Assembly: GCA_030704615.1 (NCBI GenBank)
Contig: CM060734.1
Coordinates: 37,634,001-37,698,000 of the forward strand
DNA length: 64,000 bases
Source: Takakia lepidozioides
Lineage: Eukaryota > Plantae > Bryophyta
Reading direction: 5' to 3'
Part shown: positions 29,250-61,585 of the stretch, in pieces
Position numbering within the stretch: position 1 is the stretch's first letter
How the letters are laid out: each line of letters starts with the position of its first letter
Position numbers and translations under genes: made by a program
Notes under the pieces: model-generated
What the model was told of the DNA's origin: nothing
Databases searched by the model: none
What the model saw: the letters and a program-made list of their open reading frames with translations, nothing else

Positions 29250-29861
29250 TCGTACTTGAATGGGCTATCATCTAGAGTCTCTCTAGATATTATACGTTGA
29301 ATAGCACGATTACTTGCGACCTTCTCCATGATATTGTACTTTGTGTAGGATTTATGATCTTTATGGCATGTGTGCAGTCTGCATGCCCTTCCACAGGCAT
29401 GAAGACCTCATCCATCTTTGTTATACCAATCGCATGTCCAGTCTTGTTAGCTATCTATTTACCACTCAGATTTAGATCAGAGATCATTGATTTTATTATA
29501 CACTCAACATGTTTTTGCCCATATGACCCTTGATAAACCACACATCAACTGTTCATTTCCAATTCACCTTCGGAGTACAAGAAAGCGGATGTGAGCTTTT
29601 CTCATTTTCACCCAAGATAGGCCGCTTGCTTAGGAGCTTCATATACGTGTCAATGACATCGTTGATAGGACAGTCCAATGCCTGACGTTGATTTTCACTA
29701 CAGGAAAATAGGGAGATTTATGACGTCGTAAAACAACCCTTTTTGGGCAAGGGGGGAGAACCAAATTTGCTACGCCCGGGCGTCGCCAAAAAAATGTCGC
29801 AAATTTACGACCAATGGGGGTCGCAAAAAGACGAAACTGCGATTTGCGACGCCCGGGCATC

Positions 29862-29906
<45 letters not shown>

Positions 29907-31200
29907 ACTCTGCATGCAGATTTATCACCGTCCGGGGATCGCAAAGTGTGACGCCCGGACGTCTCAATTTACGGGCTTCCACTGTGGTGATGCTGTTGCG
30001 ACGCCCTGGCGTCGTAGAGGCGTTGGGGCGCCCTCAGTGACGCTTTTGCGATGCTGAGGCGTCACAACGTTTTTTTTTTTTTTTTAATTTTTTTTTTTAT
30101 GGACGTCGCAAGAAAAAAAAATCCGTCGCAGCAAGGGCCCTCTTTCCCCCTTCATGCCACCTTGCGACGGCTGGGCGTCGTGATGGTGTCGCAGCGGGGG
30201 AAAAAAACGTCGCGGGCTCGGCGCCGCACGGGGCGCAGCTGACGTCGTAAACCTCCCCCCCCCCCCCCCCGCATTTGTTGTAGTGTTTCGACACCACATA
30301 GTGGGATTCTCTTCTCTGAAAGCTCTTGAACTGGTAGTTGTCTTTAGCAATCTTATCTCTCTTGCACACAAGTATCTCTCTGACAGAACAACACAAATAT
30401 GTAGCCAGAGTCCCTCCTTCCAACTGCACTCTCTCTGAAGAATGCATACAAACAAATGCACACAAACGAACAGAAGCGCAGAAAAACGCTTAGCCCGAGT
30501 CTAGAGAGGATTAGCATGTTTACACCAATTTATATCAAGTTTGCACAACACATGTACTTATATTTGTATATTGTAGATGTGCGGATAAGTGCATAACATA
30601 TCGTTTTTTTCTATTTTTATCATTTTCCTCTCTTTTATTTCCATTTAATGACATCCAACTTCCAATTCTGGAGGTGGATGATACCTACAAAATACAAATT
30701 AACCTTGTATTAGCCAAACTACAATATGCACGAATATAAAAAAACCAAAACAACTAAACAGTGTCTACTACATGAGATTGAATGTCACTCTCGACTCTTC
30801 GTTGCTCTTGGAGAGCACAAATTAGCTTTCCGATCGCTCGGAATATTAGTCTTTGTATGCTGCAAAACACAAAATCTTCATATGTTAGATTACATAACAA
30901 ACATACCTAAAAATATATGCGTAAAATATATGTGTGACAAATAAAAATATCTAGATATGACTTATGGGGCAGGAGGGTAAAGGCTCCCATTTTTCTTTGT
31001 GGTCTCCAGCATAAAGAGACAAAGCATATTCACGAGCAACTTTGGATCTTGAGCTTTAGACAAATCTTCCATACTCTTTTATGTGGAGTAACTTCTAAAT
31101 ATTCGTCATTCATTTAACGCTCTGCGCGCCCATGTTAACTCAAGGAATTTGAATGTTGGAAACATATCGTGTCTAGTAAGGCGGGTGTTCCTGGAATCAT
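29250..31200 (-). pseudogene. Crypton-like (DUF3504 tyrosine recombinase) relic, copy B
   Basis: Homologous to copy A in inverted orientation (KDPKLL..KKNGSLYPP; RAFREENPT); C-terminal IANKTGHAIGITKM and HKDHKSYTKY resemble the YR H-x-x-R and GH...Y catalytic motifs; frameshifted and partly deleted. Confidence 0.65.
29696..30285. mobile_element. Non-autonomous CACTA (En/Spm) element inserted in Crypton-like copy B
   Basis: Ends CACTACA / TGTAGTG; 3-bp TSD TTT; subterminal GCGACG/CGTCGC repeats; copy A shows the near-empty site GGTGTCGAAATCAACG at ~28381. Confidence 0.88.
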
Positions 31201-32165
31201 GATAAAGAGATTGTTGTTTGTGGAAAGGAGCTTGTACATGGTACTTCATTGACTACGTAAAAAAATTTCTAGTTTTTTTCCTTTGTGTTTTCAGGGATCT
31301 TTCGGAGCAAAATTTTCTGATGCGGGGTCTTACAGGGAAATTCCCCATAAGACATAAAATATTTCTTACGGAGAATCTCTATGTAAGATTGGGCGTTTTA
31401 AAAAATATATATCTTTCTATTTCTTAAGTAGCTCTATTATTTTGCCTCAATGATATTTTGAAGCTCAACATCATGGTGCTCTTTTGATTATGATTGAATT
31501 CGCAGTCTCTTCAAACACGTGCAATGTGCAATGGGACAACACAAGTTTCAATGGACAAATTAAGTAGAGAATGAAAGGTGCTTTTATTTTTTCTGTGCTA
31601 ATTATTTCCAGTGGAGTGAAAATCAACCTACATGATCTAGAATCACAAAATTGCTCTACGAGCCTGCCATCCAATGTACTACTCACGAGCATTCTCTTGA
31701 TCATCAGGACTAGGTCTCTCGTTTTTTAACAAATTAGGTGTATGCTTAGGGTCCACAACGATGATGCTACAATTTTCCAAATTGTTGAACCGATGACCAA
31801 TTTCATATCAACCGTTTCCATTTGAACTACCTGACGAATTCACGAGGTCGGGTTTCTTCGTTTCTTCATCATATCGCTCAGCATCTTCATTCCAGCCTCA
31901 AATTTCCAAAACTCATAATGGTTGAGATAACTTTTGTAGGTATAAGAGCATCAACACGCAACAACCTTGCAATGGTAACCTACCGCGGCCTCCAACAGTC
32001 CCCTCCCCCAGCGGCAACCCCATCAAACTACCCTACACATGTCTTTTTGGCTCACCTGCCTTGCTACAAAGGGCCCACTTGGCACACACGGCCTTACCCT
32101 CACACCATAAATGCACGACTACGTGCTTTTTAGTCTCTCCAGCGGGTAAGGTGGGGGGGGGCTTA

Positions 32166-32647
32166 GAGCATCTCCACGGTGAGCACCGCGGGTGGCAAGG
32201 ACAGTTTTTGCAGGGACAGGTTGGTTGAAACTCCCCGGTTGGGACCAACGGTACGAGACAGACACGGCAGAGATACCCCGGGGGAGGCCTGCCGCTCCAT
32301 CAGGAACTTGGTGCGTTGACCGATGACACATATCACATTAACTCCCAAATAACTCACAAGTTTAATGTAGCGTGGTTAGCGGGTCCGGTATAATTGGACA
32401 AAGTGCCGGGCAGGAGGAGGGTTAAGGGGGGGGGACACCAAATCCGCTAGACTGAGCCAACCCTGGAGCACTTTTTTGGACCCCGTGCCGGTAGATTGCC
32501 GTTTTGGGGCAAGTACTGTGACATTGTGGAGATGCTCTTTAGCTGCACGGTATCCTGCACCAAAGTACGGCCTAGGGGTGTGGATACCAGGGCCGGGGGC
32601 TCCTTTGCCGTTACAGGGGCATATAAGGACCCCCCTTGGAGATGCTC
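32166..32647. mobile_element. PIF/Harbinger Tourist-like MITE
   Basis: TIRs GAGCATCTCCA / TGGAGATGCTC flanked by TTA / TAA. Confidence 0.75.
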
Positions 32648-33443
32648 TAAGTCACTAGCCCCATGTCCGTCTTTTGACGTTTGCGAACTGTGTATGAAGA
32701 GACTACAAATTCAATCATAATCAGAAAGAGCACCATGATGTTGAGCTTCAAAATATCACCAAGGCAAAATAATAGAGCTACTGATAGATATAGAAACACT
32801 CTGATCATAGGAGGAAAAAGACAAGAAATAAAGAAATAGATAGATAAAGAAAAGAAAAGAAGTGGGCCCAGCCTTACTGGAAATTTCCATGTAAGACCCC
32901 GGCCAGCATGGGAAAATTCTGCTCCAGAAGATCCCTAAAAACACAAAGGAAAAAAAGCTGGAAAATCTTTGCGTTCGGTCGCTAGTCTGAAACGGAGGGG
33001 GCCCGGGGCCTCTAAGATGTGTCTAAACTTTGGGCGGGCCTGCTTGGCAAAGCGTCTCTGGACAAGTAGCGACTCGTTGGGTAGTTGGTGAACAGTCACA
33101 ACGCTATTGGGTTGCAACCTGCAAGGGCAGGTAGATCATGAACACGACGGTGAGCTGCCATAAAGAGCGTGCCATCCGGACTGTCACGGTTCTCTGTCTG
33201 CCGCGCTTGGATTTGGGGGTGCAGCGTGTGGGAATGTGTTAGTGGCAACTGAGGATGGTGTATGAGTTGCAGTTTGAATGCGGGTCAATCCTGTCACAGC
33301 AGGCGTGCGGGTTGTTATGTATAGCAGAGTTTCGGCTTGGCTGTTGTTTGCGATTCCAGGTTTGATACTTTTCCGCTCTCTACATCTCTTAACTTGCCTC
33401 CAACGTCCCTTCAATTTCCCAGTGGCCTCTGTGGGTGAGCACA

Positions 33444-34875
33444 ATGACACACCCCTGCACTGACTCAACGGCCGAGGACATATTCGGGACTTTCACACCT
33501 GAAGAATTCTACGCCAGACATGGGGTGACGCACTCCGAAGAATTCATTAAGAATGCGCAGGGACTGTCGCGGTGCACCCGGTCATGGATACCTGTGGATC
33601 AAAAGCTTCGAGGGACAGTCATGGTGTGCCACGGCTATGGAGCTGATGCAGGGTGGATGGTCCAGCTTACTGCCATTGGCATAGCCAAGAGGGGCTTTGC
33701 AGTATTTGCAATAGACCATCAGGGCCATGGGAAATCTGAGGGGCTGAAGGGTTACATTCCAGACATCAATCCTGTGCTGGATGATTGTGTTGCATACTTC
33801 GATGTGAAAAGAGAACCCTACAAGTCTCTCCCCACCTTTTTGTTTGGGGAATCACTGGGAGGGGCTATTTCTTTGCTGCTTCATCTCCGGCAGCCCAGAC
33901 TGTGGTCAGGAGCCATTCTCAATGGTGCTATGTGTGGCATCTCTCAGAAGTTCAAGCCCCCATGGCCTCTGGAAAACCTGCTCTACTTGGTGGCAGGTTG
34001 GATATCTACCTGGCCAGTCGTGCCTACCAAAGATATACCCACAGTTTCTTTCAAGGAGCCCTGGAAGCGGCAGCTCGCAAAGAATAACCCAAACAGGTAA
34101 TTTTGTCATTTACTGCATCTACCGTTGTGCAGGAGACATTGGCATCCTTTCTCATCATCACATTGATATTTGTGGCCACAGTAAGGCTTAGGTCTGTAAC
34201 TGTCCCACCGAGACCATAATATGTCCGCAGCAGTGTTTTTTCCTTGTATGTTTTGGAGCTATTGTGCCATACTCTCAGATACATGGTGCTTGCCGACTGC
34301 CCTCACTGTCCACTGAAATTGCTTCAAGAACTCAGCAGTCGAATAAGATCACTCACTCTGGGAGACTGTCCTTGCCACATAAGAATTAGTCAGCAACATA
34401 GCAGCCCAGTTGATTGTGGGGTTAGCTGCGATGAAAGCTGCAAATCCCTGTGGTAAGCTGGTGATTGCATTCCCTGGGTAACATTCACAGGGATTGGTCA
34501 GCCTTCTCTGGAACCATCCCACAATCTAGTTGCGGTAGAGTCCACATGTTTGCTGATGATCCAAAGTCACCTCTCATCAGGTATGGTGGAAATCCGCGCG
34601 CCGGTACAGCTCTTGAGCTTCTACGGGTAGTAAAAGAAATTGAGGCCCGTGGATCTGAGGTCACACTTCCTCTGCTAATTATACATGGAGAATTAGATGT
34701 GGTGACGGATCCAGAGGGAGCAAAGAAGCTTTATAATCAGGCAGTGAGCTCCGACAAAACTCTGCACATCTACCCAGGCATGTGGCACCAGCTGGTTGGG
34801 GAACCCCCAGAGAACATTGAAAGAATTTTCGGAGATGTCTACTCATGGCTTGAGGCCAGGGCTCCAAGGGGCTAG
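33444..34875 (+). CDS. Alpha/beta hydrolase of the monoacylglycerol lipase / caffeoyl-shikimate-esterase-like family; exons 33444-34096, 34581-34875
   Basis: HGYG oxyanion motif, DHQGHGKS, nucleophile GESLGG, HGELDVV (Asp), YPGMWHQL (His); GT-AG intron in phase. Confidence 0.92.
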
Positions 34876-44003: not shown

Positions 44004-47000
44004 NTGTCGGCAGCTTGTAAGGAAGAAATACTTAGGTAGCGTGTTGGGTGTGTGAGACTCGAGAGAGAGGGCGCTTTGAAGTTTTAACACAGATTGGAAT
44101 GCGATCCGGGAAGTGGTAACTTAGGAGTCGAGCATTGTCCAATCTGGTAATGTTCAACCTTGTCCAGGATTCGGAAAGAGTGTTGCCCACCATTGAGTCA
44201 AATTATGGAATCACAGTTGCTTCCCTGGTAATGCTCAAGTGAAAGAAGATGCACGTGGAACCAGTGCTGTGCCTCGCAGGGGAGGAGGCTTTGCAGAGGA
44301 TCATTGTGAGGATCCAACTGTTTGAGAAGGCGGTTTGGGTAGGTCTGGATCAACTCTCTCATGATTATAACTTCCAAATAAGAAATTCCTGCAAGCACAT
44401 CACTCTTATAGCTTTGTCCCCCCTTCAAACGCATTGACCCACATGAATTTAGAGTGGATTGGGCATCGGTGACCACAGCCCATCATCATCTTCCACGACA
44501 ATATCGCCAGGTAAAGCTTCTGACTCCAGTAAAGGATTTCCAGAGTCTGAGAGTTGTTGGGTAGCTTGCCTCCTAGCTCGGATGGGCTGTAAGTGATACA
44601 CATCAAAGAGATTCCCATGAACCTGAATGAGTGTGGTCTGATTCTGAATGCATAAAACAGGAAGATAGCTGGAGAGTGTTAATGAAGGTGTTGATTGTTA
44701 TCTTCAATGGTACCTTTGGAGGTACCTGATGAATAACTGAGGTTTTTGGAACGGTCATGTGGGAAGGGCTATTATGAAACTTAGTTGCTGATTGCTCAAG
44801 TAATGCTCTCATAGATATGGCACTCATATATCACTCATTCAAGATACCCATATAATTCAGCAACCATCCAGATTGATATACCAATAATTAGATCAATTAC
44901 TACTGAATGAGTGAATAACTTATGATGTAAGCTAGAGGAACCCATGATTTGCTGAGTTGGGGATTTTGACATATTAAAGTTAAACATTGAAGGCTTTGAA
45001 TGAAGGCTTGTCCTTGGGAGTCACCCTTCAAATTCTAACCAAGTGAAGGTCCCAGCCATTACTTAACCCTAAGGGCACCATGAAAACAGTTACCCTACAC
45101 AGATTGGGAGCCATAGCTGGAGCCAGGCCTGCCCAGCATACTAGGCTTGGATACTGGATACCCACCCACCATGGGCAGCCAATGCAAAAAGAAATGCGCA
45201 AATCCATATTCGTGTCTCGGAATTATAAGGTTGAACTCATCAACCTCCAACTTGAAAGTTCTTAGTACTCCGTAACTTTTTGTCGCATAACATAAATCAC
45301 ATGAAAGTTGAGCCATGGATTATTGTACAACGTGAAGTCAGGCATGTGTAGCCCAATTTTCGGATCAAAATTCCCATATTTGATGGGACTCCTTTGTACT
45401 TGATGGCCGGGGAGGGGTTTCAAATTTGGCTCAGGCTAGACCCTGTGATTGCCAATCTGTGAGCCAATAGTGGGAAGCCTCACAAAATGGCCACCCAAAT
45501 AATGGATGCCGCTAAGTTCTATATCCAGATAAACATTATTGTGGCAAAATCGCGTGGGGTGTCTTAGCGCCCGGAAGTGCTTAGAACCTGACCCCAACCG
45601 CCACAACTGCCTCGTATTTTTATCTTTTAGCTTACCCCTCATTCAGATTACCAAGTGTTGGTTAGAAAAGGCTATCACCATGGTGGAATCTCCCTCTGGA
45701 TGATACCGTTTGTATGGTTGGATACTGTTAAGATCCGAGGGTGCAGGGGTTTAGGGTAAAGCGGATAGCCTTTGTTGGCCTCTAACTTTGAAAGTGTTGA
45801 ATGACTGAGTGCTTGGAATGGGTCCCATTCCAAAGACACAACTTTGCTGCCCATATCAGATATTTACTTTCAATTGTAAATGATCTTGTAGTATTTTTGA
45901 CAGCCTGGTCATCACATGATTGGACTCATTTTATTACTCTGTCATTAACACTTGTGAACAATCTACTACCGTACTTACCTAGCTTATTAGGCACTTCCGC
46001 GCCTAATAATTAATAAAAATGGAATATTATTAGGCAGATTCGTTTTTATTATTTAGGCACCTCACCTCAGTAATTTCCAAACATTAAGCATGTATTACAG
46101 TCGACCCTGGATATTTTTATTTTTCTTTTTATTTTTAAATTTTACAGTCTACCCTGGATAATAATGAACAATTATTTTTGACCTCCCTCAATAACTATTG
46201 TTGAGGTAATTTTCTTTTAAGAAAACATAATGGTTTTGAACCGGACGCTTAATAAAGTTATCTACCCAATTTCCATGGTCGATGAAACCTTATCATATAT
46301 ATTATCAACTACCACTGATGATATTGATGTTTCAATCTGGTGGGGCATGTTTGTCATCCCATTTAACCGAAAATGGAGCGGTACCCAAAACGGACCCCTA
46401 GAAAAATACATAAAACTAACCATGTGCCATCTTTTAAAGGTGTTTTGATGAGGAGTGGTCCGAATTAGGTCATGTGGTGGGCCACATTGGAACTCCAATG
46501 AACCCTTTTAACTCATACATGATCATGATGACACCACTTAATGGACAAGTCAATAACCATCGGCACGCACTTTGAGAGCGAAGTCCTCAAGGAAGAATGA
46601 ATCCTAACATGCCGGAGAGGGGATCACATTCCGTGATCAACGATCCTGATTAAGTTTCACCTAGATCAAAGATCGAGGATTGAGTTTAATCCAAATGGAC
46701 CTTGAGCAGAGTTTTTCTTTAAGGTAGGAGGTTACTCAATAAATGTTTATGTTAGTTGACTCACATGGTCCATGTTACTATGTTGTTACCACGTTTCACT
46801 TTAATCAGTAAAGTGAAAGAGGATGCACACTTTTTGGGCACCTTTGGCTCCAGACAGAGTGCACTTGCTGTTCAAAATAGTATCCCTTACTGGTCCATTC
46901 AAGGTTATTCCATGATTGCACCTTGAATATTCACCAATATTACAAAATAATTCGGTTTTTTTTTAAATATAAATTTCTATGTGCCCATATCAGAAAAATA

Positions 47001-50000
47001 TATACGACGACAGTGCACACCTGAAATTGCACACATTTCTTAAATGATCCATTTTAGGTGTTTCTACTTTACCAGTTGCTATCAAACTTGTCCGGTAATG
47101 TTCCTTTCATTCACTCGTTACACATGTGTGGTGTCCGGTTGCAACGATTGCATTCTTCAAAGCCACGCTACTATGTGACTTATGGGCATAAGTTTCATGT
47201 GTTGGGTAAACCTAGGTGTAGAAAATCTGACTGGCAAAACTAAAAAAATACCTATGATCCCTTCAAAACAAAAAACATAAAACATAAAGAAGAGGATTGC
47301 AGCTCAAATGTAGTGTTCCACAAGAGGAGGGACACATGATTTATATCAGCATGAATGTTGGCAACTACGTAAACATGAATGAAGGAAAGAGCAGGACAAA
47401 AATATCAAAGTGTCCATTTGTACATTAGTACCTATGTGACACAAAACTACAATATATATCACATGATGATCCTTGAAATTTTCCTATTTGGTTAGGATGT
47501 GTTCAAGGTATGCCCTTTCAGGTCTCACTTGCTCTCTCCATTGTCAAGTTATTTACCACTAGTGTGAAGTTAGCTAGGAAATAACTAGCTTTTATATATT
47601 GACATTTGGGATTGATCCAAGCATCAATCCAGGGGCCAATATATGTTTGGGTACCTGACGATGTTATCTTCACGGCAGATCGCGGTGGGCTCATCTTTCT
47701 CGAGTTGAGTCTTATCACGTCTAGCTATGGCGCCGTAGTGTGGATTCTCCATGGTGTGGGGTGCACTTGACTCGACTTAATATATGAGTGATGTTTTCAT
47801 GTGCAAATATGTGAGTTTGAGAGAGTTTGTGTGCTTGTATCATTCTTTTCTTTATCACTCAAGAAAGATCAGCTCGAGTCTGTGAGTGCCAAGTTCGAGT
47901 TAGTTGTAGCACTTGTGTTTTTAGATTATGAAAAGCGGTTCAGCCTAGAGTGTAGGGATTCGTGCATGAGCCTATCCAAAGCGGATAGAGTGCAAAAGCG
48001 CACAGGTTGCAGGTTTGTAATGGATAGAGAGGCAGGTAGCCTATGTTGAAGGGCGGCATTGCATAGCTCACCGCTATAGCAATCAAGTTTGGGCTTCTAG
48101 TATGAAGCGGAAGAGATGTTGGCCATGAGTGCGCAAACTGGTGGTCGTCTTCTTCAGCTGCAGGTCGAGTTAAGGAGCTGTAGGAATGTGGGCTGCGCAT
48201 GGAAGCTAGCGTGTTGCAGGTTAGAGATGATATGATCAGCTCCAGGTATTTCTGCCCGAAACTAATTGTTGCGGGTAGATGAGGAGCAACCGAATGGTGG
48301 AGCTGCGAGGGGATGCATCGCAGCCCGTTGCGAATTTCAGCTCTAAGCTCATGAAGAGGTATGAGTGAAGAAAGGGGGCCGGTCCCTCTTGTGTGCAAAT
48401 CAGTGCACTTGTGAAACAAATTGGAGTTTCAATCTGAAACTCAGCAGTGTAAGGGCTCTTGGAGTGGCAAGAGCGGGGCTGGAAGGGCAGCAGCGAGGCA
48501 TCCTAGAGCCAGGGGATATGCATGAGAAATGCATGTGCACCAAGTTTGTAAATGTGTGTATTTTCATATTCGTTTTTGTGAGCTTCATGAAGAAATTGAG
48601 CTTGTTGGGCAGCATATTGCTTGTTTGTTGAGTTTAGGGTGCCCCTGGTGGGTCGTGAGAGCCCAAGAGAGCATGGCAGCAGCTCTGGTGGCTTTGCAAA
48701 AGCCATAGCTCAGCGGCAGCAGGTGCAGGAGCAAACCCCAGCTCGGGGAGAGCTCGGGAACGCGTGGGAACGCCCGGGAACACATGGGAACTCGTATGGA
48801 GTTCCTGGGAACGCAGGGAATTGTTGACCGTGACTGTTGACCGTGACCGTGGGAAGCCTTGGTGCGAACACCACGGGTTGGCACGGTGACCAGATCGTGA
48901 GGATGGCGGGCCGTGAAGGCTCGGGGTCGTGGTACCACGGGGTATCACGGGGCAGCCCATGGCCAACGAGCTCCTAGGGCGGGCCGTGAGGAGTCGTGGC
49001 AGTTAGAGCCACAAAAGGCCACGAACAGACAGAGTGAATTTTTTTTATAAAAAATAAAAAATAAAATAAAATAAATCACTCGTTACGTGGGACCTTGATG
49101 GGGAGGCTGGGCTCTGAAGAACAACGGTTTTGAGCTAGCTGATCCGGCAGAAAAGTCAGAATTGCCTCCCTGTTGCATTTTAACAAAGGGGATTACTTCC
49201 CTGCATGTAATCTTTTTGGGTTTTCAGCCCAATTCTTAACTATGGGGGAGACCAGCCTGCAGGTAATTCCTTTGGACTGAATGTTGTTGGGGCCTATATG
49301 TACCCCTATTTGCTCCATTTTTGAACCTTCAGTGAATGACGTGGTTTCCTGAGGTGGTTCCATTCTGAGGAATGGCTGGTGGACATAAGGAGGTACTAGT
49401 GGACCCTGTGGAGGCTTGCATGGGGCCTTGAAGGCCAAGTTTCATGAGCTCATGGAGAGCGGTTTGAGGAATGTCTATAGGATGCTCTCATGGTCATGCA
49501 AATGAAAGAAGAGAGGAAAAAAGAGGATGTTGGGATGAGAGCGTGTTGGGGATAGGCATTGCTTTAGTTTCCCTTCCTCGTAGTTTTCCACCTTTTGTAG
49601 GCCGAGACCTTTTCGTAGGTGGAGGCAAGAGTCAGTCCGGTTTTGGGCTGGGTTGTAGGAGCGACACTGTGGAGTTATTTTTTGTGTGGGGGAGTTATTG
49701 TTTTCATTCTTGTATTTGGATCCCCTCCACACATGCATGCTTGATTGTGCGTCATGCTAGTTTTGTGTGGACGCTTGATTTTATAGGTGGTTAACTCGGG
49801 CTTGATCGCCGATCCAACCCTAAAAGCATGCTATCAATGGTGAGGCTGGGTTGATGACCAGTCATACCATCTTTGCTTCTCATGTAGTGAGGTTGGAGGT
49901 GATGACCAGCCAACCATAGGAGTGCCTGCGGTGGATGCAGGTGCATGTGCAGGCTATGTTAGGAACCTAGTATTCCAAACCATAAGCCGCATCAGGTTCT

Positions 50001-50041
50001 CTACCCGGTTACCTTGTGGAGAGGGGATTAGAGACAGGTTC

Positions 50042-51800
50042 ATGACCGGTTCAACACGGAGGTGCCACTAGTTGCTGGGGAAAGTGTCGGTACGAGCACT
50101 AGCGATATTAGCGGGTATATGAGACGAGGTGTTCGGTTTAGGCCACCTTCACCTCCTGTGTCTTCTACGGAAGGTTCTAATTCGGATTGTGAATCAGGAT
50201 GACTCACACCGGCGGTGCAAGTTGTTTCATTGCCATTGTTGTGGGACACAATGGAGGAGATGTATGGAGCCACCAAGGGGCCACGTAAGTACTCTGGGGC
50301 AGTGGGCACCATTGAGTTGGATGATTTTATCCAAGAATTTGATAGTTGGTGTGACTTGCAGCAAATGCGCAATCCACAACTGTTTACGTCTTTCATGGCA
50401 TAGAAGGAGCTGTTTCAGCACCTTGAAGGGCCGCCCATGGATGATTACCATGAGTTTAGGCGGGGGCACGATGTTGAGATCGAGGAGTGGAGGATGTACT
50501 GGTCACCCGACTATGTCTCCATCACTAGAGGCACTAGAGGCACCAGGGCAGCAGCCACATCGGCAGCTGCACCAGCAGCAACAGCTACAACAGCAGCTTC
50601 CACAAGCTGTAAGTGGGACTAGTGGTACAGCAACAACGACGTCCATCCAAGCTACTGTTGCACCAGCAATAGTGGTGGTATTTGCCTTCAACCCTGTTGT
50701 GGAGTTCTTCGAAGAGAGAGTGAGAAGGAACTACCAAGGGGTGAGGACAAAGAAGTTGAGAAGCTTGCAAGGAGTTCCAGATGATGAAGCCTACTGAACA
50801 GGTTGGTTGATGGAGGCTTCACTCGCATTGAGGCGGCGCTTGATAAATGTAATCCAAGGGATTACGGGAGGCTTAGGCAGTTCACAGTTCTGTGTACAGG
50901 GATATTGGACGGGGGAAGGAGCTGATGAGAAGGGTGCGGGATGCAATTCTCCTACAAGCGGCCCAACCTACCTTAGCAAATGTGTTTTTGCTGGTAGAGC
51001 AGATAGAGCTCAACATGGTGGAAGAACGAGTGGTCATGGTGGGATTTGCTAAGGAGGCACCACGGTGGTAGTTGTGCTCCTAGCCAGCCACTACTGTTCT
51101 CAACGTGCTCAAGGAAACAAGAGGCTCAGAGTGAAGCCCAGGGAAGGGCAGGAGAGAGGACCTCAGCTGCAGGGGTCTCTCCCTTCATTTGCTGCATCAA
51201 GCCAAACAATGGGCGGATGTGGTGTGTTGGACATGTGGAGGACCCCATATGCAAGAAGGATTGCCCAGAGGGAGGCAATGGTTGGCACCGGGCACAGCCT
51301 GCATAGTTGTATTGTGGGCAATGCTATGTGGCAAGTACGGGCATGGAGAGAAGAAACCCAATGTTATGGTTTGCAATCCTGAGTTGTCACCAAGCCAGTT
51401 GTACTCGTGGAACAATGGTGGTGTCTGATGGCGGGCCGCGAGGGTGGGCAGAGGCACGAGGTGTACGTATAGACCAAGGGCAAATCAACATGGCCAAAGA
51501 CGCGGTGGTCAGGGTGTTGACCATGGCATGACCAACCGGCTTCAACAGCTAGAGCAGAGGCTCGCTGCCATGGCCACAGCTCAGGTGGTACCGGCGCCAA
51601 GGCCGGATAGTCCACTTCCTGCTCCTGGGGCGGAGAGGAGATATGGGAGGCATGGGATTCATGTGCGGGGCAGGACTACCACTAGTGCAAGTGGAGTCAG
51701 CGTGCGGCAGTGACTCGAGGAGCAGCACGAGTTCCTGAGCCACGAGGTGTAGAGGTAGAGTAGAGTTGGATCCATAGCGTGGGGAGGCAAAGCCGTCAGG
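50042..51800 (+). pseudogene. gag: gag (degenerate)
   Basis: RKYSGAVGTIELDDFIQEFDSWCD; zinc-knuckle-like VCWTCGGPH and CGKYGH; stops and frameshifts. Confidence 0.75.
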
Positions 51801-51861
51801 CCAGGCTTCCTCAGTCAATCACATTGGCGGAGACAGTATCGACGTCATCCATGGCACCTAG

Positions 51862-52530
51862 TGTCAAGGACGAGAACATGACTGAACACAAACAAGAGAT
51901 CAGACTAGAGGTACAAGACTAGACAAGAAGTCAAGATCGGTGTGGCCGAAACATGGTGGGTGTAGGTAAACATGAATCAAGATGATCTTTATAACAAACT
52001 GGACAAGAGTACAAGATAACTGGAACTCGACTCAAATACTGGAATGCTGGGAAACTGGACTGGGGTTACCAGATACTGGAAACTGGACTAGAGTACTAAA
52101 AGCTGATGGACTAGAGTACTAGGCTGGGAACAGCCGAGTAGCTTGAACTCTGGTCTGACAAGAATGTGAAGAGATATAACTAGTGCTCGCATCCTATATA
52201 TATACTGGCTACTAAGAAACTTCCCTAAGATTGGAAGAAGTTTCCCCTATGGAGGTTTCTTGCGGAGAAGTTTCCAAGATAAACAAAAAGGTTTCTGATG
52301 GAGAAGCTTCCTTAAAAAAGGAGGTATCTTGATGGAGAGTAGTTTGCCTCCAAAGGAAGCTTCCTGAGCGTTCCCAAGTTACTCTAGATAATTTGGTAAA
52401 CTCTCGGTAACTTGGTAAGTAATGGTAGATCATGGTAATCGGTCACTGGTAACTTCCGGTATTATGGTACACTGATAATTTCTGGTATATTACTCCTTGG
52501 TAAGTTCCTTTGGGCTATGTCCGCGGCACA
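51862..52530 (-). mobile_element. Solo LTR of a second family, nested in the DNMT-Gypsy
   Basis: TG...CA ends; 5-bp TSD CCTAG (51857-51861, 52531-52535); homologous to 55321-55795 and 56939-57120. Confidence 0.85.
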
Positions 52531-53029
52531 CCTAGTCAGTCATCAATACCACCTTACCCGAGGCGTGAGAGGTTACTATGACACTTGGGGGAGAGTCTAC
52601 GACATGCAGGAAACACTACCTAGTGTTGCCCACAGCTAAAACGAGAAGTAGTGTGTTGCTAGTTGGGTAGGGCGGCCACATCTGTGGGTCAGGCCCATTA
52701 TTCTCGGTACCATTGATGGCGACAGCGAGGGGTAAGGGGGAAAAACCAGATGACTTGTGTTCAGGGGATTGTTGTGGCAGCGACACTCTATGGAGGGGGG
52801 AAGGTTAACGTATCATCTTGTCGCGGAACCGAGAATAGTGGAGAAGGTAGTAAAGTAAATAACAGAGGGGTAGGGAGTACCGGAGGGATCCTCGGAATTT
52901 GAGGGTCAAGACTACACGACGGCCGCCATGGCAAGCTGTTGCGCTGCCGGACGTTGATGGAGCCTGACCAGCTAAGTGGAGGCCCACGACCGCATGGCAA
53001 GCGCGCTGTCCCACTGCGGTGGACACCTA

Positions 53030-53420
53030 GAGTTGTCATGTTAGACACCAGGATGACATTTTCTATTTGAGTGGACCGGCGGCAAGTGACCCGGCCACTT
53101 GCGGGTTTGCTGGATTCGGAGCTCAGCCATTGATGTCGGGCAGAGCTGCTATTGCAGGCTTGGGGCTCATGGAGGCGGATATGGAGCCGTGCCATTTCCA
53201 AATACAGACAGCTTTGGAGATCAGAGCCGGCTCGGGGCATGACACGGCGTGAGTTGGCTATCAGACTACAACCGGATCATCCTACAGATGGCTCAGTGAT
53301 AAGAGCCAAGGCCATTGTGACAGACGCGGTCTCGTACGATGTCCTTGTTGGTGGGGCAGTGTTGTACCCCATTGGCTTCACCCTGGATTTTTGGAAGGAG
53401 TCAGCTTCCTATAGGCCTAG
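53030..53420 (+). pseudogene. Retroviral-type aspartic protease (degenerate)
   Basis: LLDS-GAQPLM (frameshifted) and YDVLVGGAVLYPIGFTLDF. Confidence 0.75.
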
Positions 53421-53814
53421 ATGGCAGTCAGGGGAGGCCTGCGTGTGCAGCTCCCTTTGACGTTCATAGGAGGAGTTGCGGTTGCCCGCGAGGCAAGATG
53501 TCGACACTGGCAGCATTCACAGCTGCAGTGAGTTGGCGTGGAGAGTTGTTTGAGGGCAACGCTTATTCAAGGGATGTGTTACCTCCGGGAGAGCAGGATA
53601 ACATGTACAGTATGGCAGAGTTGCGTGCCATGGTTGCTTACACTCCATTGTGGGCTCGAGCAAGGATTTGCATCGGTTTGCTGATTGTCGTGTGCAACAA
53701 GCCTGGGTAGAGGCTTTTGTACCGTCAAGAGAGGAGGACAGTGTGGGGCTTGCACCAGGACCATCTCAGTTGTCACCATTGGACACCACATCCATTGTGT
53801 GGCAAGTGTCCGGA

Positions 53815-54760
53815 TGAAGGCATTTGCCTTCTGGACTTGTTTGGCGGGATCAGCACCTGATTGGCTGCTGTGCTCCAGGCAGATGTATGGGTACGGCGTT
53901 ACTTGTATGTGGAGAGGGATGAGACTACACAACGCGTCTCACTCTGTCATGTTGCTCAGTTGGTGTAGCAGTACCCTGAGTTGTTGCCGGTGTCTGCGGT
54001 TCGTGGATATCAGCAGGCCTTGCCACAACATTTTCGTTGCTGGGGGCGCAGGATTTGGAGCGGGTTGGCTCCATTGATCTGGTAATGACAGGTTGGCCCT
54101 ACCAAGGTCATTCATCAGCCGGACATGGCAATGGATTGCGAAACTCGAGGTCGGGTCTGTTTTGGGAGATGGTGCGGGTTTTGCGCCACTTACAGTTTCA
54201 TCAAGTTATATCTCTTGCATACATCTTGGAGAATGTGTCACTGATGGGCGATTCTCGGACCAAGGTGATGGCCAATGTGCATCAAGTCCGGTCGTAGTTT
54301 GGGTTAGCATGTGTTCTGCTGAGATGCAGCTATGTGGGGTCACGGGCTCATCGTCCACGGCTATGGTGGACTAACTTGATGCCACCCCGCACTGCTCAAG
54401 CGTGCATTTGATGGGGTGCAGCGGCCAACACACCTCACAGTTGATAGCATCTTGGACACAAGAAGGCAATATCAATATGTGAGACACGATGACCGTTTGT
54501 CTTTGGCAGTGGTCAACAAGGTAGGTCAACCACGAGCAGCACTACCTACACTGCTTAGCTTCCCAGGATCGCATGCTTTCCGAGATAGTGGACCTGGCCT
54601 CCTGTGGGATGCTCAGTTTTCGCAGTTAGTGGAGCCTAATGCCGACGAGCGAGAGCGGGCTATGGGTTTTTCTACTGGGACCACGGCGGTGCCTTCTCTT
54701 TCTGAGGCATCACGTCGTCAGGTGTTGGGGCAAGCGATGGATCTCAATTGTTTGACCTAA
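53815..54760 (+). pseudogene. DNMT3-like C5 cytosine DNA methyltransferase domain within pol (degenerate)
   Basis: Motif I LLDLFGGIST*LAAV (53828-53872); II YLYVERD; IV IDLVMTGWPYQGHS (54091-54111, PC to PY); RSGLFWEMVRVL; VI YILENV (54229); VIII GSRAHRPRLWWTNL (54337-54378); IX ERERAMGF; X RRQVLGQAMDLNCL. Confidence 0.88.
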
Positions 54761-55179
54761 ATTATCAGCTTGGCTATGGCTGAGCAATGTAGAGTGCGGA
54801 GTGCACTTCCCTTGACGGTCTCTCTGCCTACCGAGACGGTACAGAGAGTGAGTGGGAGCGAGCCGGTGAGGACCACGGGGTGTAGACATCCATGGCACGC
54901 GTGGGAGGTGCTTGAGGTTCAGAGGGAGTTGGCAGCCAAGGCAGCTGTGATGGATGAGGTTGGGGATTCTCTGGGGTTGAGGAGGTCCTCAAGGATGAGA
55001 TGATGGGGCAGGATGAGGCCTTGTCATTGACTGAGCAGACGGGGAGTACTGCTCAAGAGATTGCGGCATAGCAACCACGAGACGCGTCCTCTATCTCCAA
55101 GTCTGCTGGACTTAAGGTTGCAGTTACGGAGGACAATTCGGAGCCTGACATTGGACCTATTGTCACTGGTGGAGAGAGA

Positions 55180-56760
55180 CGACGTATACGGCGGTTCCTG
55201 AGGGCTTACAGGAATTGCTTTGCCTTCAGTGATTTGGGAGCACTGAATGGTCAGGAAATTCGTATTGAGTTAGTTACGGACACGCCAATCTTTCGGAGAC
55301 CCTATAGATACAGTGACATGTGTCACGGACATAGCCCGGAGGAACTTACCAAGAGTAAATACCAGAAGTTACCAAGTTCCCATGTTACCAAAAGTTACCA
55401 TGATTTACCGTGATTTACTATACTCTAACATGATTTACCATTACTTACCAAATTACCGGGAGTTTACCAAATTACCAAGAGTAACTTGGGAAACTGCCCA
55501 GATAGCTTCATTTTGAGGAAACTTCTCCATCAAGATACCTCCTTTGTTTAAGGAAGCTTCTCCATCAAGAAACCTTTGTTTAATGTTGGAATCTTCTTCA
55601 GCAAGAATCCTCTATAGGGGAAGCTTCTTAGGGAAGCTTCTTAGTAGCCAGTATATATAGGAGGCGAGATTGGACACTCTTTAGTCTCGCCAACACTAGA
55701 TCAAGCTACTCTTGTTTCCAGTTCACAGTAATCCAGTCCAGTTCCCAGTACTCTAGCCAGTTTCCAGTATCTGGTACTCCAGTCCAGTTTAGCACTTTGG
55801 ACTTGTGGTCCGGATATCACCAGTTGCCGATCAAGGAGGCGGACAAGCAGAAGACAACATTCTGGGGGATCAATGAGCACGGGAAAGATTGTCTATATCA
55901 GTGGCGGTTCTTACCATTCGGGCTTAAGAACGCTCCTGCAGAGTTCCAGAGAGTCATGGACAGGATTCTAGCAGAGGTGGACTTTGCTCGGTGCTACATA
56001 GATGACATCATCATCTTTAGTGCTACAGTGGAGGAGCACGAGAGACACCTTCATCTGGGGAAGTGCAAATTCTTCCACACCCAGATTGAGTATTTGGGCC
56101 ACATGATATATCCTGGAGGATTGGGGGTGCAGCAGACTAAGGTAGAGGCCATCGCACAGATTCCACGCCCTACGGATGTGAGCCGAGTTTGAGCTTTCAT
56201 GGGATTGACAAACTACTATAGACGGTTTGTCAATGGATTTAGTGTTATTGCAAAGGCTATAACCAAGTTGACCAAGGTAGACCAGGAGTGGCAGTAGGAA
56301 GATGAGCAAGAGCGAGCTTTTCATGAGCTCAAGGCGAGGTTGACCTCGGCGCCCATCTTAAGACGACCTATTAGGGGGCGTATTTTTCAGCTGCATACAG
56401 ATTGGAGCATGGTGGGGCTTGGAGCGGTGCTCACACAGGTGGATGATGAGGGAAGAGAGTTCGTAGTGCTAGCTTATGTTAGCCGCTCGAACAATGCTGC
56501 AGAGTCTAAGTATAGCTCATATGAGTGGGAGTGCTTAGCTACAGTGTGGGCCATGGCACACTTCAGGTGTTATCTATACGACAATCTCTTCACTCTTGTC
56601 ACGGATCACCAGCCACTGAAGTGGTTGATGGAGTCAGACAAGCTTACGGGGAAGCTTGCACAGTGGGCACTTATACTCCAAGAGTATGACTTTCAGGTTG
56701 TGCATCGACCGGGTTTGGTCAATAGGGATGTGGATGGATTGAGTTGCAATCCATGCATGA
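55180..56760 (+). pseudogene. Reverse transcriptase and RNase H (degenerate, interrupted)
   Basis: RRPYRYS; LDLWSGYHQL; LPFGLKNAPAEFQRVMD; YIDD (55995-56006); YLGH; RNase H LHTDWSMVGLGAVL, VTDHQPLKWL. Confidence 0.93.
55321..55795 (+). mobile_element. Truncated LTR of the same family as 51862-52530, inserted in RT
   Basis: Starts TGTCACGGACATAGCCC, a near reverse complement of the 52512-52528 end; shared AGTAGCCAGTATATATAGG and CCAGT repeats. Confidence 0.85.
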
Positions 56761-56839
56761 GCCAGCAGGATGACACTGGAGCTCGGTGGCATGGTGAGAC
56801 GGACGAGGAGATGGTGCCGGGATGACATGCATCTGCCTT

Positions 56840-57255
56840 GGCATCACCGTGGCTGAAGTATACTCTCTACCAGAGAGCTCCACCAAACTAGCCTCCCAGA
56901 GATCTTGAGTCCTCATCTGAATCAAAGACCTCTCCATGTTATCAAGGACGAGAACATGACTAAACACAAACAAGAGATCAGACTAGAGGTACAAGACTAA
57001 ACAAGAAGTCAAGGTCGACGTGGCCGTATGCACGATGAGTAAATAAGAATCAAGACTATCTTTATAACAATGAACAAGAGTACAAGATATTGGAACACGA
57101 TTTGAATACTGAAATGGACCTTGGCATGCCCAATGACATCAAAGATCTCCTCCGGTGTGGGCATGGCATACTTATCGGACTTGGCATGGATTTACTGGCC
57201 GGTAATCACCGCACATACGTCTCTCCGTCCAATTGCCATAGACATCCTTCTTTAT
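56840..57255. mobile_element. Insertion between RNase H and integrase containing a third fragment of the nested LTR family (56939-57120)
   Basis: TCAAGGACGAGAACATGACT..ACAAACAAGAGATCAGACTAGAGGTACAAGACTA nearly identical to 51864-51920. Confidence 0.75.
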
Positions 57256-57479
57256 ATCTTGGCATCAGGAGGTCAGATTGGATCTACAACAGGGATGACT
57301 GTAGACGGAGTGTCTGAGGACCCTGAGGCTAGTGATGAGCCAGGTGATGCCAGAGATATACATGAGGATTCGGTTGTGTTGGATTACCTCTGCATTGGAG
57401 ACACGGCAGCTAGTGTAATTGCCAAGGAGAGGGATCGGATCCTACAACGAGCCAAGAGGTTCAAGTGGGATGGGATACA

Positions 57480-58600
57480 CCTGCTTCGAGTGTGGGAGGA
57501 TGGTCGGGTGAGGATTGTGCCTCACCCAACACAGCGTGCACGGTTAGTGCGGTATGCCCATGAGGAGTTGGGGCATTTTGGAGTGCGACGCACTCATAGT
57601 TTGCTGCATGGGCAGTATTGGTGGCGCGGTATGCACACAGAGATGCAACAGTTTGTGGCTAGGTGCATGATGTGTGACAGGTGCGTGCTTCATTCAACGC
57701 CCCTACACCACAATTGCGTCATTTACCCATCATGGGATTGGGCTACAGGTGGAGTCTTGACTTCGCAGGGTCTTTGCCACTGACAATGCGTCACCACATA
57801 TATATGTTGGTGATGGTGGAGCACTTCTCCAAGTGGATTGAGTTGGTTCCATTGCATGACAAGACTAGTGAGAGGGCTACGTATACATTCTTGGATCGTG
57901 TGCTTAGCCGATTCGGTGCTCCAGGTGAGGTACTCACAGACCTTGAGGGAGAGAGTTCTTGGGGGAGTTTCAGGCTTTGTATGATAAAGCCTTGATAAAC
58001 CACTGTACCACTTCTCGGGATCATCCTGAGGCCGATGGCTTGGTAGAGAGAGTGGTACAGACGGTGAAGATGGGTTTGCGCAAGTATGGCTTGCAAAAAA
58101 GACACCTAGGAGATTGGGATCTTTAGGTACCTTGGTTAGTCATGGGCTACAGGTTTAGTAAACAAACATCACTTGCCTCCTTCTCACCATATTTCCTTCT
58201 CTTTGGCCGAGAGCCAGATTTGCTTGCGTCTATTCGCAGGGAAGCTGCAGTGGTCCTCAACCTTGATGATCTGGATGTGTGGACACAAGCATGTGCCCAA
58301 CGGGCGGAGTTGTTCAAGAGGGTCATGCCTATGGCTTTTGAGAACCTTGCTATTGCCCAACACCGAGACACATTGAGATATGTCACTATACGTGGAGGGG
58401 GATATCGGCCAGGTGTTCGGTGTTTCCACCCTGGGGACTATGTGTATCTGCACCAGACAGCGCCTACGACCTTGGATATCACAACAGGACGTGTGATTCT
58501 AAGGGTCAGGGAGGTGTTGCCTTGTGTTGATTCTGGAGGGTCCAGATGGCATGGTATGGAAGGACCATGTACGCAATTGTGCGCCATGTCACTTTCCACA
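57480..58600 (+). pseudogene. Integrase (degenerate)
   Basis: HHCC finger HEELGHFG...CMMC; core WSLDF, VEHFSKWIE, VLTD, GLVER; SPYFLLFGRE. Confidence 0.92.
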
Positions 58601-58652
58601 TGTGCATGAGATGATAGATCTCAACCTTGCAGTGGTGCCTGCGGGGTTGCGT

Positions 58653-58787
58653 TGCATGCTATGTGGGCATGCTCGTGGTGCCGCCACTATGTTGGTGTGT
58701 GATCGATGCTCAAGAGGTTGGCACATGAGATGCTTGACACCACCTCTTGAGAGGGTTCTTGATGGAGATTGATCATGTCCACACTGC
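58653..58787 (+). pseudogene. PHD finger at the integrase C-terminus
   Basis: C4HC3 pattern CMLC...MLVCDRCSRGWHMRCLTPPL...GD*SCPHC (conserved W mutated to TGA). Confidence 0.88.
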
Positions 58788-59052
58788 TTGGGATAGTGGC
58801 AGTGGATATGACTAGTGGCAGCTAACAAGACATGGGAAGCCAAGCTCATAGGAGTCAATACCCAAGATCTTAGGCTCAAGTTCACAGGTTGCAAGACGAC
58901 GACTAACAATGGGGAAACTCTTGTACCCGACCTCTTGATTTATCGAGTTTGAGTGTAGTAGGGACAGTGGTGGATGACTTAGTGAGGCTATGGTCACTAT
59001 CACATCTTGTGGCTACCTGGACTTAGAGGGACCTAAGCGCCAGCTAGGGGGG

Positions 59053-59552
59053 NNNNNNNNNNNNNNNNNNNNNNNNNNNNNNNNNNNNNNNNNNNNNNNN
59101 NNNNNNNNNNNNNNNNNNNNNNNNNNNNNNNNNNNNNNNNNNNNNNNNNNNNNNNNNNNNNNNNNNNNNNNNNNNNNNNNNNNNNNNNNNNNNNNNNNNN
59201 NNNNNNNNNNNNNNNNNNNNNNNNNNNNNNNNNNNNNNNNNNNNNNNNNNNNNNNNNNNNNNNNNNNNNNNNNNNNNNNNNNNNNNNNNNNNNNNNNNNN
59301 NNNNNNNNNNNNNNNNNNNNNNNNNNNNNNNNNNNNNNNNNNNNNNNNNNNNNNNNNNNNNNNNNNNNNNNNNNNNNNNNNNNNNNNNNNNNNNNNNNNN
59401 NNNNNNNNNNNNNNNNNNNNNNNNNNNNNNNNNNNNNNNNNNNNNNNNNNNNNNNNNNNNNNNNNNNNNNNNNNNNNNNNNNNNNNNNNNNNNNNNNNNN
59501 NNNNNNNNNNNNNNNNNNNNNNNNNNNNNNNNNNNNNNNNNNNNNNNNNNNN
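59053..59552. other. Assembly gap
   Basis: Run of N. Confidence 1.
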
Positions 59553-61135
59553 GATCTATGCAGTGAAGAAATTTCAGTGCATTACCATTATGTGGGAAGA
59601 AAGTTATTGTTTAATGTGGATCACCAGGCTCTGATATATCTGGTGAACAAACCTTTGATAAGTGGAAGGATAGCGAGGTGGTTAATAATCTTGCATGAGT
59701 TTGAGTTTGAGGTTATTTACAAGCCTGGCCGTTTGCATCTTGTGGCAGATCATTTGTCACGACTAACAACAGGAGAGGCCGCCACAGGAGTGGACGATCA
59801 GTTACCTGATGCGAGTTTATTTGTAATGGAGATGCAAGGAAGTGCAGATGAATGGTTAGATTGGCAGTGGCAATCAGATACTACCTTGCTCATGGTCAGT
59901 GCCCACCTAGTTATGGTAAGGAGCAGAGGAAGAGAATTGCTATCAGAGCTTACCTTATACTATGGTAGGAAGCAGAATGTATATTGAGGACCTGATGGAG
60001 TACTAAAACGATGCTTGTACCACCATGAAGTAAATAAAGTCTTGGAGGAAGTTCATAAAGGAGTGGCTGGAGGTCATTTTGGAGAAGAGACTACCAGTAG
60101 AAAGATACTACTCGCAGGATACTGGTGGCCTACTTTGTTCAAAGATGTACATGAGTATTGTCAGAAGTGTGATGAATGTCAGAGGCTAGGACCTTTGCAG
60201 AGATCTGGAAGAATGGCCTTGCATCCTACAATGCCTACGGAACCATTTCAGAAATGGGGACTAGACTTTGTTGGACCAATTAATCCACCATCCAAGAATA
60301 CACAAAACAGGTACATAATTACAGCCACTGATTATACTACAAAGTGGGTGGAAGCTAAAGCTTTGAGGGACAACACAGCCAAGTCCACAGCAAGGTTCCT
60401 GTACGAGAACATACTTACACGATTTGGATGTCCCTTAGAATTTATCAGTGATCAAGGAAGTCACTTCATGAATGAGACCATTGAGTTATTGACTAAAGAG
60501 TTTATGATTGTGCATAGAAAGAGTACAACATATTACCCACAGGGTAATGGACAGGCAGAGGCTACCAACAAAATACTATGTACTATCTTGGCTAAGATAG
60601 TCAATGCAAACAGAACGGATTGGGATACAAAGCTGCTGACAGCTTTATGGTCATACAGGACTTGTATATAAGTCACCACAAAGTATACACCATTCCAATT
60701 AGTTTATGGTATGGAAGCCTTACTTCCAGTGGAATTCCTGTTACCTACCATGAGAACGGAGTGGGAAAAAGAATGGAATTGCAAGACTCCATCAAGGTCA
60801 GGAAACATGAATTATACCATGTGGAAGAAGTACGTGCTGATGCAGCGGATAATATGACCAGAATTCAGATGAAGCGAAAGGAACAGTTTGATGAAGGCAA
60901 ATTAAAGACTTTTAAGACGGGGGATTTGGTTCTATGGTTGCAGAAGAAAGGAAAGATTCAAGCTTCTAAGCTTAAATCACCATGGAAAGGACCTTATGTC
61001 ATACAAAAGATGTATGATAACAACACAGCTATGTTACAAACCATTAACAAAGAAATGCTGGGAAGAGTCAATGCAAATAAGTTGAAGGGGTACAGTGGTA
61101 TCCATGACAAACCCCTGCAGCATGATTTGCATTGA
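59553..61135 (+). mobile_element. Second Ty3/Gypsy element: RNase H end, integrase, GPY/F region (frameshifted)
   Basis: VDHQALIYL..RIARW; VADHLSRL; HKGVAGGHFG..CDECQ; WGLDFVGP; ISDQGSHF; YYPQGNGQAE; WKGPYVI. Confidence 0.92.
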
Positions 61136-61232: not shown

Positions 61233-61585
61233 CGTGACACAGCCTATCACAGCCCATCACGGCGTGATACAGCCTATCACACCCATCACGGCGTGATACA
61301 GCCTATCACAGCCCATCACGGCATGACACAGCCTATCACAGCAGCAAGGCGCAACACGCCATCACAGCCCAGCACGGCGTGACACAGCCTATCACAGCCC
61401 ATGCACGGCGTGACACAGCCTATCACAGCCAGCAAGGCGCAACACAGCCATCACAGTCCGGCATCGGCGTGACACAGCCTATCACAGCCCGTCACGAAGC
61501 AAGCTATCACACACCACATGTGCAACACAGCCTATCACAGCGTAAACAGTATGACACAGCCTGTCACAGCTCAACACAGCCTACT
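61233..61585 (+). repeat. Tandem array, ~27-31-bp unit, about 13 copies, core GTGA(C/T)ACAGCCTATCACAGC
   Basis: Directly visible periodic repeats that decay toward the 3' end. Confidence 0.92.

Follow-up and report, generated by a model that had tools for sequence, protein, structure and literature searches.

A DNMT3-like cytosine methyltransferase domain as a standard part of a Ty3/Gypsy retrotransposon family with a decayed copy in the moss Takakia lepidozioides

Retrotransposon-borne C5 cytosine methyltransferases have been described in SymbioDIRS-Dnmt3 and SymbioLINE-Dnmt (PMC5890265) and in the EpiLTRs (bioRxiv 10.64898/2026.05.21.726589). The first two belong to the DIRS or LINE class, unlike the Gypsy element reported here (PMC5890265), and the EpiLTRs carry a DNMT4-like domain together with DAM and a chromodomain (bioRxiv 10.64898/2026.05.21.726589). 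All three have non-plant hosts and were described as separate acquisitions. A charophyte case is also known, as was noted in a sequence-only reading of the present locus, namely KnitGypsy-Dnmt3 of Klebsormidium nitens (PMC5890265). When assayed in yeast, SymbioDIRS-Dnmt3 produced de novo CG methylation and the KnitGypsy-Dnmt3 domain produced none, the latter result being regarded by its authors as inconclusive (PMC5890265).

KnitGypsy-Dnmt3 is the closest known element. Like the element described below, it is a Ty3/Gypsy retrotransposon whose DNMT3-like domain lacks introns, is unrearranged and evolves under purifying selection, and its DIRS-like split repeats, in the order A-coding-B-A-B, recur in relatives of the copy studied here (PMC5890265). 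Its methyltransferase, according to the authors, shares an open reading frame (ORF) with reverse transcriptase (RT) and RNase H (RH), whereas a stop lies between them here; a PHD finger, present in our element, is not mentioned in the supplement text searched (PMC5890265). Its host is a charophyte; the host here is a land plant, and relatives of the element occur in mosses and liverworts. Because the KnitGypsy methyltransferase sits in the RT ORF, our element was not filed as a member of KnitGypsy-Dnmt3, the two having been compared by description only. Among bryophyte Ty3/Gypsy elements, Phygy of Physcomitrium is a non-chromovirus, and the present element is likewise without a chromodomain match; the word "methyltransferase" is absent from the Phygy paper (PMC6317226).

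The sequence-only reading had been unaware of good descriptions of land-plant members, and no paper on them was found. The literature search, whose coverage lay outside subscription journals, returned no paper describing the stop or any bryophyte member, and the available portions of PMC6317226, PMC6453930 and PMC9516144 mention neither. The main text of PMC5890265 is without Marchantia or moss. In the available parts of PMC12344493 and bioRxiv 10.64898/2026.05.21.726589 "streptophytes" are referred to with land plants unnamed, and the supplementary trees or tables of these works could include bryophyte copies. The Gypsy-plus-DNMT3 kind was already known; what the present element adds is a land-plant range that takes in a genetic model, a probable leaky-stop design pointing to dosage at capsid level, and a lineage spread broadly over green plants.

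The stretch of DNA analyzed (the window) comprises 64,000 nucleotides of Takakia lepidozioides (GenBank assembly GCA_030704615.1, contig CM060734.1, positions 37,634,001 to 37,698,000), numbered from its first letter. A DNMT3-like C5 cytosine methyltransferase domain (hereafter DNMT) was located on the plus strand at 53810..54787; frame changes near 54035 and 54385 divide it into three pieces, and four premature stops interrupt it. The seven motifs between I and X on which the original claim rested were all found on that strand in canonical order: LFGGIS (53837-53854), YVERD (53906-53920), GWPYQGHS (54091-54114), ENV (54229-54237), AHRPRLWWTNL (54346-54378), ERAMGF (54653-54670) and RRQVLGQAM (54713-54739). 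The catalytic Cys of motif IV is Tyr in this copy. A PF00145 match was obtained for one of the three frames, the middle piece alone scoring 34.6 bits (gathering cut-off 22; E 1.8e-8). The element is a dead, decayed copy of a multi-copy moss Ty3/Gypsy family with a DNMT3-like domain; relatives with open frames were found, as had been anticipated.

The remaining domains follow the Gag-PR-RT-RH-IN order of Ty3/Gypsy elements, with a PHD finger at the end. A Gag-like region with frameshifts and stops (50251..51575, plus strand) matched the Marchantia proteins P0009 and P0016 in tblastn at 72-73% over the first 98 aa, and gave no Pfam match. The degraded aspartic protease-like domain (PR; 53034..53424, plus strand) was found by tblastn to relatives; it too gave no Pfam match in the window copy, and was named by its likeness to P0015, P0152 and P0157, which carry PF13650. 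Downstream of DNMT, an in-frame stop in a TMV-type readthrough context (TAG CAA CCA, 55069..55077, plus strand, in frame with RT) precedes the N-terminal part of RT (55123..55320, plus strand; tblastn 62-68% to P0007 and P0016). The C-terminal half of RT and RNase H occupy 55782..56810 (plus strand; PF00078, PF17917, PF17919). The frameshifted integrase (IN; 57480..58540, plus strand) comprises a zinc-binding part, with PF17921 above its cut-off, and a core for which PF00665 reached 30 bits, just under the cut-off of 32.6. The PHD finger at the integrase C-terminus (58650..58793, plus strand) scored 29.8 bits for PF00628 (cut-off 24). A conserved 3' non-coding stretch with a purine run follows before the terminal repeats (59011..59052, plus strand); it is 88% identical over 43 nt to the relative L037, in which it lies directly upstream of the B repeat. 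A gap of 500 N (59053-59552) covers the 3' repeats of the window copy, so these and its 3' end are unread. For this copy neither a primer-binding site nor a 5' repeat was assignable. At 47542-48170 a TG start, preceded by different flanks in different contigs, shows where a high-copy repeat has its 5' end, which may be a candidate for the 5' end of the DNMT element itself.

The window copy has been rearranged. Two solo LTRs of one other family, each with a 5-bp target duplication, are nested within it. The first lies at 51862..52530 (plus strand, TG...CA, duplication CCTAG). The second, with duplication ACATG, has been split by later inversions into a 3' part (55321..55790, minus strand) and a 5' part (56940-57116, plus strand), the latter between two inverted RT pieces (56824..57255, minus strand; tblastn to relatives) that stand in normal order in other copies. 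Two inversions are inferred in this copy. The order of the RT pieces at 55321-57255 can be explained by insertion of a solo LTR and then two overlapping inversions, though an assembly error may account for it instead. At window positions 46500-59030, G-to-A and C-to-T changes account for most (362 of 675) of the listed differences from other copies in run X1, a pattern that decaying host-methylated DNA would be expected to show.

Past the gap, a second, unrelated Ty3/Gypsy RNase H-integrase fragment (59554-61135), about 40% identical to the RH of the element, and a tandem array (61233-61573) were observed. Nested repeats of 60-140 nt, both direct and inverted and foldback- or MITE-like in character, occupy 25883-32974. 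Two host genes were recognized, one coding for a caffeoyl-shikimate-esterase-like hydrolase (33393-34875, plus strand) and one (15668-16882, minus strand) which we take to be glutamate-semialdehyde aminotransferase-like. The top BLAST match of the host exon 33444-34097 was the lycophyte Diphasiastrum (75%). In a tree the exon grouped with mosses, outside Sphagnum plus true mosses (99/96); for this one exon, placement with lycophytes was rejected (p-AU 0.01 and 0.028), as was placement with liverworts (p-AU 0.029). On this basis the host is firmly a land plant and probably a moss that branched early.

The kinship of the domain was determined with a profile built from eight natural relatives and searched against the PDB. 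DNMT3A was matched at 2.6e-16, DNMT3B at 1.3e-13 and DRM at 1.3e-10, followed by DNMT2 at 2.8e-7 and HaeIII and HhaI at about 1e-6. A structural model of a natural relative (pLDDT 65.5, pTM 0.70) gave the same order in Foldseek, with DNMT3A best at E 2.6e-13. The domain thus stands closest to DNMT3, ahead of DRM, DNMT2 and the bacterial enzymes, and its motifs are unrearranged; the claim of a DNMT3-like domain between PR and RT of a Ty3/Gypsy element was borne out by profile, model and domain layout. Canonical motif order and fold are common to the element domain, human DNMT3A (about 22% identity) and the host plant enzymes PpDNMT3a/b (PMC6453930). The element domain differs from host DNMT3 and DNMT3A in being embedded in a polyprotein without DUF3444, PWWP or ADD. 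Motif IV in the family reads WPCQ or WECQ, unlike DNMT3A.

Paralogues were read from Logan contigs (runs X1, X3 and X5, of which X1 and X3 represent one sample) and from 78 metagenome loci, 61 of them close. The 211-base catalytic core was recovered in 1,661 contigs of run X1. In X1 (65 contigs), X3 and X5, respectively, 95%, 98% and 100% of depth carried the catalytic Cys codon, and no indel in the core reached 40% in any of these runs. Nothing from run X7 fell on the core, and run X6 may be RNA; neither bears on expression. Sequencing depth over DNMT, which is a measure of depth and not of copy number, matched that over RT and IN in order of magnitude, and one contig ran from the end of DNMT into RT-RH in normal order. 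Among the close loci, PR was found upstream of DNMT in 32 of the 41 with room for it and RT downstream in 41 of 47; the eight without any other domain were all on contigs shorter than 3.7 kb. The catalytic Cys was retained in 54 of 56 loci and the Glu of ENV in 51 of 55. The two motif VIII arginines were present in 36/58 and 45/58 loci, the losses being likely due to CpG decay in dead copies. Sphagnum, Marchantia and Calypogeia relatives retain the Cys; the relatives among the named matches listed include Marchantia polymorpha, Calypogeia fissa and two Sphagnum species. In the Marchantia cluster, four of the 15 listed members (P0239, P0240, P0241 and P0244) are Mp_Vg gene models, which are likely to lie on the V sex chromosome. 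Viral contigs gave 33 distant matches (29-53% over partial stretches), and the ESM Atlas returned a PF00145 cluster, mostly of Streptophyta.

Among the nearly open copies L040, L036 and L041, dN/dS was 0.06-0.10 for DNMT and 0.05-0.07 for RT; between two Sphagnum-like families the DNMT value was about 0.2, and between dead copies of one family 0.51-0.93. The alignment filter used drops poorly aligned codons, which lowers dN in these values. The domain in relatives was thereby shown to be under purifying selection, and was shown to be a standard part of a Ty3/Gypsy family with the layout Gag-PR-DNMT-RT-RH-IN-PHD. The alternative that a host DNMT3 pseudogene was captured once, or that DNMT is a nested insertion in the window copy, could draw on the nested insertions and inversions which this copy does hold. 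It was nevertheless rejected, and its probability is negligible: the domain occurs at the same position and with near-fixed spacing in dozens of loci, in mosses and liverworts, as a family trait; its core is conserved in X1, X3 and X5 and selected; and no intron is evident in it. Moreover DUF3444, the mark of host plant DNMT3 (PMC6453930), is absent from the Pfam lists of relatives.

A continuous PR-DNMT-RT frame, with DNMT inside the pol ORF, had been predicted from the window. Neither was found in this clade, in which a conserved stop with the context UAG-CAR-YYA, in frame with both ORFs, separates DNMT from RT, so that DNMT forms the tail of the Gag-PR ORF. The design is clearest in L040, where two open frames of 1369 aa (Gag-PR-DNMT) and 1047 aa (RT-RH-IN-PHD) abut at one TAG. 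Fifty-nine natural proteins were mapped. Twenty-nine consist of (Gag-)PR-DNMT and end 57-181 aa past DNMT, five have RT-RH before DNMT, and 17 are fragments or of other makeup. The other eight continue into RT; three of these are the Marchantia gene models P0007, P0016 and P0149, in which DNMT and RT are joined in one protein across an intron, predicted or real. Outside the Marchantia models, continuous DNMT-RT ORFs belong only to more distant relatives such as P0015 and P0166.

At 42 junctions the nucleotides after the stop were compared with CAR-YYA. The match was exact in six (the window and five loci) and within one mismatch in 30 (CAA CCC/T), and it was absent in L027, L034, L042, L048, L050 and L061; background stops gave 0.2% exact and 2.4% within one mismatch, against 36 of 42 junctions. 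Nearly all of the 30 one-mismatch junctions come from one Sphagnum-like family, often with ATG right after, which leaves about four or five independent lineages; silent sites compared between these are saturated or nearly so. In plants, TMV readthrough depends on the CAR-YYA signal, with 32% readthrough in one reporter (PMC2754532); there, too, an in-frame stop followed by this context sets the ratio of two products. The pol/env stop of SIRE1 is also followed by CAR-YYA (named in PMC2194720). The element differs from TMV in that its stop sits between a methyltransferase and the RT of a Gypsy element, and in that its readthrough is predicted. By analogy with these cases the stop is probably leaky, so that most ribosomes would end after DNMT.

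The stop could instead be bypassed by splicing, with TAG as the 3' splice site, or by an internal promoter. Ogre elements splice an intron between PR and RT. The TAG is itself a YAG acceptor and follows a T-rich run in the Sphagnum-like family, and in the three Marchantia gene models the linker is left out or cut short; a junction promoter is known at the gag-pol stop of Candida Tca2 (PMC2194720). On the other hand, at 29 of the 42 junctions the linker from DNMT to the stop keeps an open frame that agrees with that of RT, the stretch upstream of the stop is purine-rich in the window, and YYA is kept even though the codon after CAR specifies Pro, Leu or Ser, all of which speak against splicing. 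Against an internal start, no Met occurs between the stop and RT in L040, L054 or the window, so that the first one falls within RT; in L016, L036 and L041 a Met comes early. The choice between TAG and TAA was uninformative on splicing, since TAA (10 of 33 copies) is scattered on the tree and matches the background G-to-A rate (0.20). Bypass by splicing or promoter is therefore considered unlikely relative to readthrough, and under it DNMT would still be the tail of an abundant Gag ORF.

Quick trees were constructed for DNMT, containing element DNMTs and prokaryotic outgroups only, and for RT-RH. Both gave the same three groups: the stop group including the window, elements with a continuous ORF, and elements with DNMT between RH and IN. 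The stop group was one supported clade in the DNMT tree (95) and the RT-RH tree (99). In a second DNMT tree, from which 13 long, redundant or frameshifted rows were left out, it was not a supported clade and the outgroups attached inside it. A large sister group has RT-RH-DNMT-IN-PHD in one ORF (L052:2-4732; P0169-P0171, P0174, P0300), often with WECQ for WPCQ. This arrangement made up 90 of the top 150 representatives (508 were obtained at E<=1e-30, and a part of them was looked at), and includes a pol of the chlorophyte Scenedesmus sp. PABB004. A Gag-PR-DNMT protein of Closterium sp. NIES-53 (P0287) groups with the continuous-ORF members, outside the bryophyte group. The chlorophyte sister group and the Closterium member suggest an acquisition older and wider than a single Klebsormidium event. 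The host range is a lower bound because most members carry no host name; no vascular plant occurred among the matches that carry names, and no K. nitens protein among the named matches listed.

Close relatives, in which the ends were read, are bounded by TG...CA and flanked by 4-bp duplications, with repeats in the order A-coding-purine tract-B-A-B. The A-coding-B-A-B arrangement is complete in L037; B-A-B was found at the 3' end of L020, L022 and L057; in L003, A...B-A reaches the end of the contig; and L006, L012 and L019 have a single B. Target duplications were AAGG in L037, CACA in L029 and TACA in L019, the last of which ends in a single B with its duplication. None of the four readable target duplications of relatives fits the NCGN preference of Phygy (PMC6317226). 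In L037 (1676-2017 and 10238-10805) the arrangement corresponds to a two-LTR circle opened at an inner junction, and both inner junctions read CA-n-TG.

The PHD finger of a relative was compared with the PDB, and among the best 60 of 79 matches CHD4, PHF12, PHF21A, DPF, KDM5 PHD1, UHRF1, BAZ2 and AIRE were closest. Fingers of the CHD4, PHF12, PHF21A, KDM5 PHD1, UHRF1, BAZ2 and AIRE types read H3 tails without K4 methylation, as does the ADD of animal DNMT3. By this likeness the finger is likely to steer the integrase to chromatin without H3K4 methylation.

Whether the enzyme acts on DNA was judged from its residues. Catalytic activity on DNA is probable: 14 divergent members all share the catalytic Cys, EN and Arg residues, and the nearest PDB entries are DNA-acting enzymes, DNMT2 matching much more weakly. 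Both points weigh against the domain being a nucleic-acid-binding or RNA-modifying part of the particle that does not methylate DNA. That reading, for which the KnitGypsy-Dnmt3 result in yeast (PMC5890265) and the unusual motif IV could be cited, is regarded as very improbable.

If the enzyme is active, its main substrate would be, on a modest preference, cDNA of the element itself, while still in the particle or in the pre-integration complex, so that the insert would resemble methylated host chromatin. CG is the likely target, as with SymbioDIRS-Dnmt3 in yeast (PMC5890265). Most ribosomes would make Gag-PR-DNMT, and a minority would read on into RT-RNaseH-integrase-PHD. Active relatives would package DNMT at near-capsid level; the protease could plausibly free it in the particle; and DNMT would methylate the new cDNA, likely at CG, before insertion. 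The PHD finger would place the copy in H3K4-unmethylated chromatin, where the insert would arrive matched to its surroundings. Taken together, the Gag-PR-DNMT ORF, leaky stop, near-capsid packaging and self-methylation of cDNA make a scheme to which we give even chances; it is weakened by the missing yeast signal of KnitGypsy-Dnmt3. CpG depletion was considered as a sign of self-methylation and rejected, since the element (0.55) was not singled out from the neighboring Gypsy fragment (0.26) and host exons (0.39-0.48).

The enzyme might instead act mainly on host chromatin, at the insertion site or existing copies, and so limit the element itself or reshape the methylome. The PHD matches to chromatin-reading types would suit such a role, as would a Gag-level supply that would seem to exceed the need of one cDNA, and a benefit to the host by slowed transposition has been raised (PMC5890265). 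With the stop in place, however, most DNMT molecules would not be fused to PHD, and the position next to Gag-PR points to packaging. A chiefly chromosomal target is accordingly rated unlikely, and methylation of the element's own cDNA is preferred.

Why retrotransposons keep cytosine methyltransferases has been an open question since 2018. The known hosts Symbiodinium and Klebsormidium are hard to work with, and the sole Gypsy enzyme tested gave no signal. The question becomes testable in the genetic model Marchantia polymorpha, since relatives with an open Gag-PR-DNMT are annotated there as host genes; surveys of bryophytes might also mistake such gene models for DNMT3 paralogues of the host. 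The stop informs on dose, the enzyme apparently being wanted at the level of capsid and not of RT. In its widest form, put forward tentatively and as the less probable outcome, the proposal is that an ancient and very diverse lineage of self-methylating Gypsy elements exists in green plants. In bryophytes a leaky stop would put DNMT3 on every Gag subunit, cDNA would be methylated in the particle, and a PHD-tipped integrase would insert camouflaged copies into H3K4-unmethylated chromatin. Mosses and liverworts, Marchantia among them, may then receive de novo methylation from derepressed copies, a source so far unrecognized.
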